Origin: Escherichia coli
Lineage (GTDB): Bacteria > Pseudomonadota > Gammaproteobacteria > Enterobacterales > Enterobacteriaceae
Strand: one strand, 5' to 3'
DNA length: 64,000 nucleotides
Assembly: GCF_048403405.1 (NCBI RefSeq)
Contig: NZ_CP183129.1
The notes under the pieces are model-generated. The model saw nothing but the letters and a program-made list of their open reading frames with translations, was not told the origin of the DNA and did not search any database. Made by a program: the position numbers and the translations under genes. Below, piece by piece: positions 7,132 through 7,297 of the stretch (position 1 is its first letter; the number at the start of each line of letters is the position of its first letter).

Positions 7132-7182
7132 AATGTTGTCCTCTTGATTTCTGCGTTCAGGATTGTCCTGCTGAACTATTAA

Positions 7183-7198
7183 TACAATTTGCGTGCCA
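7183..7198 (-). promoter_or_regulatory. Sigma-54 (-24/-12) promoter of pspA
   Basis: Minus-strand sequence TGGCACGCAAATTGTA fits TGGCAC-N5-TTGCA, about 50 bp upstream of the pspA start; divergent from the enhancer-binding protein gene pspF. Confidence 0.8.
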
Positions 7199-7297
7199 AT
7201 TTTTTATCTTTTTGATTTATAAAGATCTGATTGAAGAATCAACAGCAACATGCCAGGATGAGTTAGCGAATTACACTAACAAGTGGCGAATTTCATC

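Follow-up and report, generated by a model that had tools for sequence, protein, structure and literature searches.

The window, that is, the whole stretch of 64,000 nucleotides of E. coli DNA that was analysed, carries the genes pspA and pspF in divergent orientation and exactly 166 bp apart (7132-7297), and the RefSeq annotation of identical DNA concurs. The locus lies in the window in the orientation opposite to that of the K-12 coordinates. PspF scores 681 bits against the NCBIfam equivalog NF008622 (cut-off 529) and 542 bits against TIGR02974 (cut-off 443.55). It consists of a Sigma54_activat domain (residues 9-170) and a C-terminal HTH_8 domain (286-322) without an N-terminal regulatory domain, and both GAFTGA and W56 are present in its sequence. 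The protein is identical to PspF of strain N3 (WP_000852835.1), an accession also annotated in O157 and O111; it is the common E. coli allele and differs from the K-12 protein by Y192H, a common non-K-12 state. PspA matches the equivalog NF007974 over residues 1-222 of 222 with 441.7 bits (cut-off 336) and belongs to PF04012 (PspA_IM30). All six psp genes of the window are full length, and no frameshifts or internal stops were found in them, while rpoN, ihfA/B and pspG are located outside the window. The initial annotation had described 7132-7297 as the divergent pspA-pspF control region, and the gene coordinates, the equivalog models and the identity to K-12 all bear this out. The features of the locus are collected in Table 1.

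Table 1. Features of the psp locus, in window coordinates; negative numbers are positions relative to the predicted pspA transcription start.
Feature	Position	Strand	Basis or remark
pspF, 325 aa, AAA+ sigma-54 activator	7298..8275, ATG 7298	plus	equivalog models
Distal PspF box (UAS II) ATGATGAAATTCGCCAC	7299->7283, about -127..-111		overlaps the pspF start codon (7298-7300)
Proximal PspF box (UAS I) TTAGTGTAATTCGCTAA, imperfect inverted repeat	7279->7263, about -107..-91		conservation, repeat
Predicted pspF transcription start	near 7266	plus	directly adjoins the proximal PspF box
Putative weak sigma-70 promoter of pspF	7231..7266	plus	-35 TTGAAG 7231-7236, 17-bp spacer, -10 CAGGAT 7254-7259
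IHF-binding region, two candidate cores	7205..7232 (7232->7205)	minus	consensus match, conservation
IHF candidate core AATCAGATCTTTA	7232->7220, -60..-48	minus	exact WATCARNNNNTTR match
IHF candidate core AATCAAAAAGATA	7217->7205, -45..-33	minus	12 of 13 positions
pspA sigma-54 promoter core TTGGCACGCAAATTGTA	7183..7199	minus	sequence, K-12 identity, ChIP-seq site OS15
Single intergenic difference from K-12 MG1655	7178, about -6	minus	T (pspA sense), C in K-12
Predicted pspA transcription start (A)	7172	minus	41-nt leader; placed from the GG at -24/-25
pspA 5' leader	7132..7171	minus	hairpin and Shine-Dalgarno inside
Leader hairpin CAGGA-CAA-TCCTG	7170->7158	minus	folding
pspA Shine-Dalgarno GAGGA	7143->7139	minus	sequence
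pspA, 222 aa, effector and negative regulator of PspF	6463..7131	minus	equivalog model
pspB	6185-6409	minus	psp operon, full length
pspC	5826-6185	minus	psp operon, full length
pspD	5596-5817	minus	psp operon, full length
pspE	5207-5521	minus	psp operon, full length

Downstream of pspF, in the interval before puuE, we observed palindromic REP-like units (gccggatgcggcg...cgccttatccggc, 8285-8365). They give sub-threshold matches to the Rfam family naRNA4 on both strands and match the REP/BIME ('RIB') element described for the K-12 goaG-pspF intergenic region.

At the pspF end of the control region, a repeat search returned two direct copies of TG(T/A)AATTCGC(T/C)A with a spacing of 20 bp, which we regard as the PspF boxes; both exact matches to TGWAATTCGCYA in the 64-kb window, the only ones, are these two boxes. 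The half-sites of the boxes are too imperfect to be called as such, so that the repeat finder reported no inverted repeats in the control region at seed 6 and the boxes surfaced as a direct repeat instead. They are identical to those of K-12 and are predicted to bind PspF, forming two upstream activating sequences (UAS) about 90-130 bp upstream of the pspA start. When 23 Enterobacteriaceae sequences, the window, K-12 and E. albertii among them, were aligned, the boxes ranked with the best-conserved blocks, and in this family they are fixed at -96 and -76 from the T of TGGCA while the length of the leader varies from 41 to 55 nt. One box is kept, at -93 to -95, in Erwinia, Serratia and several Vibrio species. 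In an engineered PpspA, this stretch was replaced as the 'wild-type UAS' and synthetic enhancers were placed near -108 and -128, the activity of the construct showing a 10-bp phase dependence (PMC3709507, PMC7229158, PMC6710252). The boundaries that we give for the UAS and for the IHF region rest on conservation and on this one engineered construct. The expectation that the stretch between the promoter and pspF would hold the PspF and IHF sites thus stood as to its content, PspF boxes and a candidate IHF site both being present, but not as to its limits, as the enhancer extends past 7297 and the distal box reaches 7299. The K-12 pspG promoter TGGCATGATTCTTGTA (ChIP site OS40) carries an upstream box, TAGTCAAATTCACCAC, that resembles the PspF boxes of pspA, and it likewise has a T, not a C, at -12; it differs from pspA in having a single UAS instead of two, in not being divergent from pspF and in its shorter leader of 25 nt.

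Two candidate IHF cores were found in the region. Exact matches to WATCARNNNNTTR occur 12 times in the window against 4.3 expected, and these frequencies correspond to about 0.01-0.03 exact matches expected in 166 bp. Among the 23 Enterobacteriaceae sequences, the exact consensus at 7232->7220 is confined to Escherichia, whereas the 12/13 core keeps a fixed position at -19 from TGGCA in 20 of them and reaches the full consensus in three (Citrobacter sp. FP75, Siccibacter and Phytobacter). The footprint of IHF covers about 30-35 bp, and if it were centred on the core at 7217->7205 it would include both candidate cores. We lean slightly towards a single IHF site of about 30-35 bp spanning 7205-7232, with the conserved core at 7217->7205 as its anchor. 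A rather unlikely alternative is that the functional core is the exact consensus AATCAGATCTTTA, the sole exact WATCARNNNNTTR match of the region and the candidate nearer to the midpoint between enhancer and promoter, and that the conserved block AAATCAAnAAGATAAAAA beside the -24 element has another role. This role could be an UP-like or a sigma-54 upstream contact, or a part in a second pspF promoter, as the complement of the block contains TTGATT and TTGATT-16-AAGAAT on the pspF strand scores 8/12 as a sigma-70 promoter in E. coli. The restriction of the exact match to Escherichia, the fixed position of the other core in most of the family and the size of the footprint all argue against it. 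At pspA, IHF is described as bending the DNA between enhancer and promoter, assisting the binding of PspF and stimulating pspA, and it also strengthens the autorepression of pspF (PMC3709507, PMC7229158, PMC6710252).

On the pspF strand of the intergenic region, a sigma-70 scan returned nothing scoring at least 9/12, and the pspF promoter was therefore placed by positional conservation. The putative E. coli hexamers, TTGAAG and CAGGAT, score 7/12 and the -10 CAGGAT is poor; at the same alignment position, other genera have better hexamers (TTGAAA-17-TACAGT, TTGATA-17-TATCCT and TTGACT-16-TATAGT), and in every case aligned the -10 adjoins the proximal PspF box. Transcription of pspF from a sigma-70 promoter is known to be repressed by PspF itself when the protein occupies the pspA enhancer (PMC3709507, PMC7229158, PMC6710252). 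The boxes would lie just downstream of the weak pspF promoter and over its start, its leader and its ATG, so that bound PspF would repress its own gene and keep its level low and constant. Such a geometry would account for the published autoregulation.

On the other side of the region, the start predicted for the K-12 site OS15, which lies 19 bp 3' of the centre of the motif and 41 nt from pspA (PMC4591121, Table 1), puts the +1 of pspA at A7172 in the window. The leader hairpin of the window has a minimum free energy of -5.3 kcal/mol and a z-score of -1.19, which alone is not significant. Over 111 distinct pspA leaders the folding signal is weak (mean z = -0.47) and convincing within Enterobacteriaceae only, where all leaders present a hairpin of 4-7 bp at about +3 to +17 with differing stem sequences and loops; outside this family the hairpin is absent. 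The stems read, according to the genus, CAGGA/TCCTG, GGGC/GCCC, GGTGCC/GGCACC, GGTCCTG/CAGGACC or AGAC/GTCT. RNAalifold applied to a MAFFT alignment of the leader 5' ends gave no consensus structure because these stems are not sequence-alignable, and no Rfam families were found in the control region. The hairpin may act as a stem-loop that stabilises the 5' end, or it may reflect a palindrome in the DNA at +5 to +15. The leader also contains a direct repeat, TCAAGAGGACAA and TCAGCAGGACAA (pspA sense; 7136-7147 and 7163-7174), with copies 27 nt apart, the downstream copy lying over the Shine-Dalgarno and the upstream copy forming half of the hairpin. We considered this repeat, TCA(A/G)(G/C)AGGACAA in two copies, as a dual CsrA-type site and dropped it since the upstream copy is Escherichia-specific, the repeat being probably due to chance.

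The alignment to the K-12 psp regulatory region that the initial annotation had suggested as a check gave a match at 165 of the 166 intergenic bases, compared base by base with MG1655. The K-12 region has the same length of 166 bp, the same gene order and the same orientation; the window agrees with it fully in the -24/-12 core, in the two UAS boxes, in the IHF candidates and in the leader with its Shine-Dalgarno, and the one difference is the substitution at 7178, at about -6, where the window has T for C. The function of the K-12 pspA-pspF region has been described (PMC3709507, PMC7229158, PMC6710252), and the control region is in that respect already known and ordinary. Of 5426 complete E. 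coli genomes, 5419 contain a match to a 231-bp query over the control region, in each case with pspA/pspF as the annotated genes, and the identical 231-bp allele was found in other complete genomes.

The E. coli alleles that were sampled vary across the region, and the -24/-12 element is untouched in all of them. Three variants were read by alignment to window 7100-7330: O157 (ATCC 43889) has a C to A change in the proximal PspF box (ATTCGC to ATTAGC), the UPEC strain EcPF5 has lost 1 bp of the A-tract that separates the IHF core from the -24 element, a loss that alters the phase between enhancer and promoter by 1 bp, and in O111 a T to A change falls within the spacer of the exact IHF match. 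A JM109 assembly (NZ_CP150878.1, locus 3182-4000) matches the control region only as far as the base equivalent to window 7285; it lacks the distal PspF box and the 5' end of pspF, a gene annotated there as a pseudogene without its N-terminus. If this is real, this K-12 derivative would be without the Psp activator.

Compared with both K-12 and strain N3, the window has two private substitutions, PspC R97P and PspA S158N; further differences from K-12 are PspC Q16R and PspE A10T. The region could in principle be present while the Psp response is abnormal, with the C to T change at -6, PspC R97P or PspA S158N shifting the basal level or the inducibility. The substitution at -6 lies between -12 and +1, where the DNA melts, and the two protein changes are absent in K-12 and N3, proline changes being able to disrupt a protein. 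However, the -6 column is without compositional constraint over 116 species (A.24, C.26, G.16, T.34), other complete genomes carry the same 231-bp allele, the PspF allele is common in E. coli and the psp genes are free of frameshifts and stops, all of which make an abnormal response very unlikely. The cis-elements are intact, as are all six psp genes, but the earlier claim that intactness shows a normally wired response went too far, as intact cis-elements alone cannot show function.

Elsewhere in the window, topA (minus strand) has lost 1 bp of the G-run at 49509-49514 and falls into the open reading frames 49484..51307 and 48669..49508, with the catalytic N-terminal part of about 590 aa separated from the zinc-ribbon domains of the C-terminus. 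The run is G6 here against G7 in strain 118UI and, judged by length, in most E. coli. The exact G6 sequence was found in 3 of 5422 complete genomes, one of them being UID2309220031, whose topA RefSeq annotates as 'frameshifted'. Either a true mutation of the lineage or an error in sequencing the homopolymer could explain it. Upstream of topA, TGGCAATAGATTTGC (51468-51482, minus) has the identical sequence to the published sigma-54 ChIP-seq site OS14.

The sigma-54 element of pspA was read on both strands: the plus strand at 7183-7198 is tacaatttgcgtgcca and its reverse complement is TGGCACGCAAATTGTA (minus, 7198->7183), in exact agreement with the sequence and coordinates given in the initial annotation. 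It lies 67 nt 5' of the pspA ATG and faces pspF. The -24 element TGGCAC occupies 7198->7193, with G7197 and G7196 at -25/-24, and the -12 element TTGT occupies 7187->7184, with G7185 at -13 and T7184 at -12, where the consensus base is C. The arrangement TGGCAC-GCAAA-TTGT gives the 10-bp distance from the GG to the -13 G, with 12 positions from G7196 to T7184; the same -24/-12 register is found in all 116 species compared, in which positions -26 to -22 and -14/-13 are invariant. Compared with canonical sigma-54 promoters such as glnAp2, nifH and hypA (TGGCAC-N5-TTGCW), pspA shares the GG at -24/-25, the G at -13, the 10-bp spacing and the A/T at -11, and it would likewise need an enhancer-binding ATPase and looping helped by IHF. 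It differs from them by its T at -12: the GC at -13/-12 within TTGCW is lacking, and pspA reads TTGTA, exactly like K-12. Its description as a canonical, textbook element is therefore not accurate, and the proposal that mutations in the GG/GC dinucleotides would refute it is mis-specified because the wild type is already without the GC. The GT remains compatible with the sigma-54 class since the ChIP-confirmed site OS15 has the identical sequence, a known functional exception.

The assignment of the element to pspA as its sigma-54 promoter agrees with several published data. In K-12, TTGGCACGCAAATTGTA is the sigma-54 ChIP-seq site OS15, flagged as experimentally confirmed and confirmed in EcoCyc (PMC4591121, Table 1), and the pspA promoter sequence is included among known sigma-54 promoters (PMC2831329). 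The pspA promoter of Salmonella Typhimurium LT2 contains the same 18-mer, TGGCACGCAAATTGTATT, to which the comparison is limited; there it is bound by sigma-54 and activated, with a 17- to 23-fold induction. By analogy with these identical K-12 and Salmonella sequences, the pspA promoter of the window would be expected to bind sigma-54 and to depend on rpoN.

As for the motif on its own, 0.50 exact matches to TGGCAC-N5-TTGY would be expected in the 64-kb window and three occur, a number that 2 of 100 shuffles reach; with one mismatch there are 18 matches against 12 expected, which makes the motif only weakly informative. The two other exact matches (21851-21865 and 24032-24046, minus) have no counterpart in the high-stringency ChIP-seq tables, which hold no entries between topA and pspA. 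A chance match without promoter function, which this modest enrichment and these two unsupported matches might suggest, is nonetheless effectively refuted for the pspA motif by its identity to a ChIP-confirmed and transcriptionally validated promoter, by its invariance among the E. coli alleles sampled and by the conservation of the core 5' of pspA in 116 species. We thus judge it a non-chance occurrence from its genomic context and from the near-identity of the whole region to that of K-12.

Taken as a whole, 7132-7300 is very probably the orthologous, intact pspA-pspF regulatory region of E. coli and would work as in K-12. In such a scheme, sigma-54 RNA polymerase would be held as a closed complex on TGGCAC-N5-TTGT (7198->7184), and PspF, a constitutively active AAA+ activator, would bind its two boxes at about -91 to -127 (7263-7299). 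IHF at 7205-7232 would bend the DNA so that the PspF hexamer contacts sigma-54 and opens the promoter using ATP, transcription of pspABCDE beginning near A7172. Without stress, PspA would bind PspF through the W56 loop and block its ATPase, and membrane stress would free PspF. The locus is a standard, undamaged copy of a well-characterised sigma-54 region, serving mainly as an annotation anchor, and the control region anchors the organism as E. coli.

The T at -12 was compared across species. We gathered the psp loci of 120 species by seeding on the conserved N-terminal coding sequence of PspA, a seed that leaves the promoter unbiased, and retained for every species the highest-scoring sigma-54 site 5' of pspA, the scoring being weighted towards C or T at -12. 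The comparison covers 116 species of 43 genera from Enterobacterales, Vibrionaceae, Pseudoalteromonas and Shewanella. The base at -12 is A in 53 species, T in 39, G in 17 and C in 7, while TGGCA and the TG at -14/-13 are invariant. The consensus C is found only in Citrobacter, Enterobacter sp. Ag1, Moellerella and Superficieibacter (7 species of 4 genera); the base switches repeatedly between lineages and seldom to C. By comparison, counts from the published tables (PMC4591121) give a C at -12 in 125 of 135 E. coli sigma-54 ChIP-seq sites (93%), and among the 42 intergenic sense sites a non-C base is found only at pspA, pspG, hydN and ygeW.

It is conceivable, though we hold the idea tentatively and think it somewhat doubtful, that the non-C base at -12 is a selected, regulon-specific signature of PspF-dependent promoters. 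According to reviews, the inhibitory 'lock' formed by sigma-54 region I and region III-HTH and the fork junction sit at the -12 GC. A non-C base may weaken this fork-junction lock, and a weakened lock could tune the basal leak or the opening kinetics of the psp system, as PspF is always ATPase-competent and restrained only by PspA, which is itself made from this promoter. A discussion of the non-C base at psp promoters was not found in the searchable literature, older sigma-54 and psp papers lying outside it, and we do not claim that it is unreported. The wider interest of the locus is comparative: in more than 40 genera, psp promoters systematically avoid the base that is most conserved in the -12 element. 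Should selection be the cause, these promoters would provide a natural experiment on the way in which the fork-junction lock at -12 sets the basal leak and the dependence on an activator at sigma-54 promoters.
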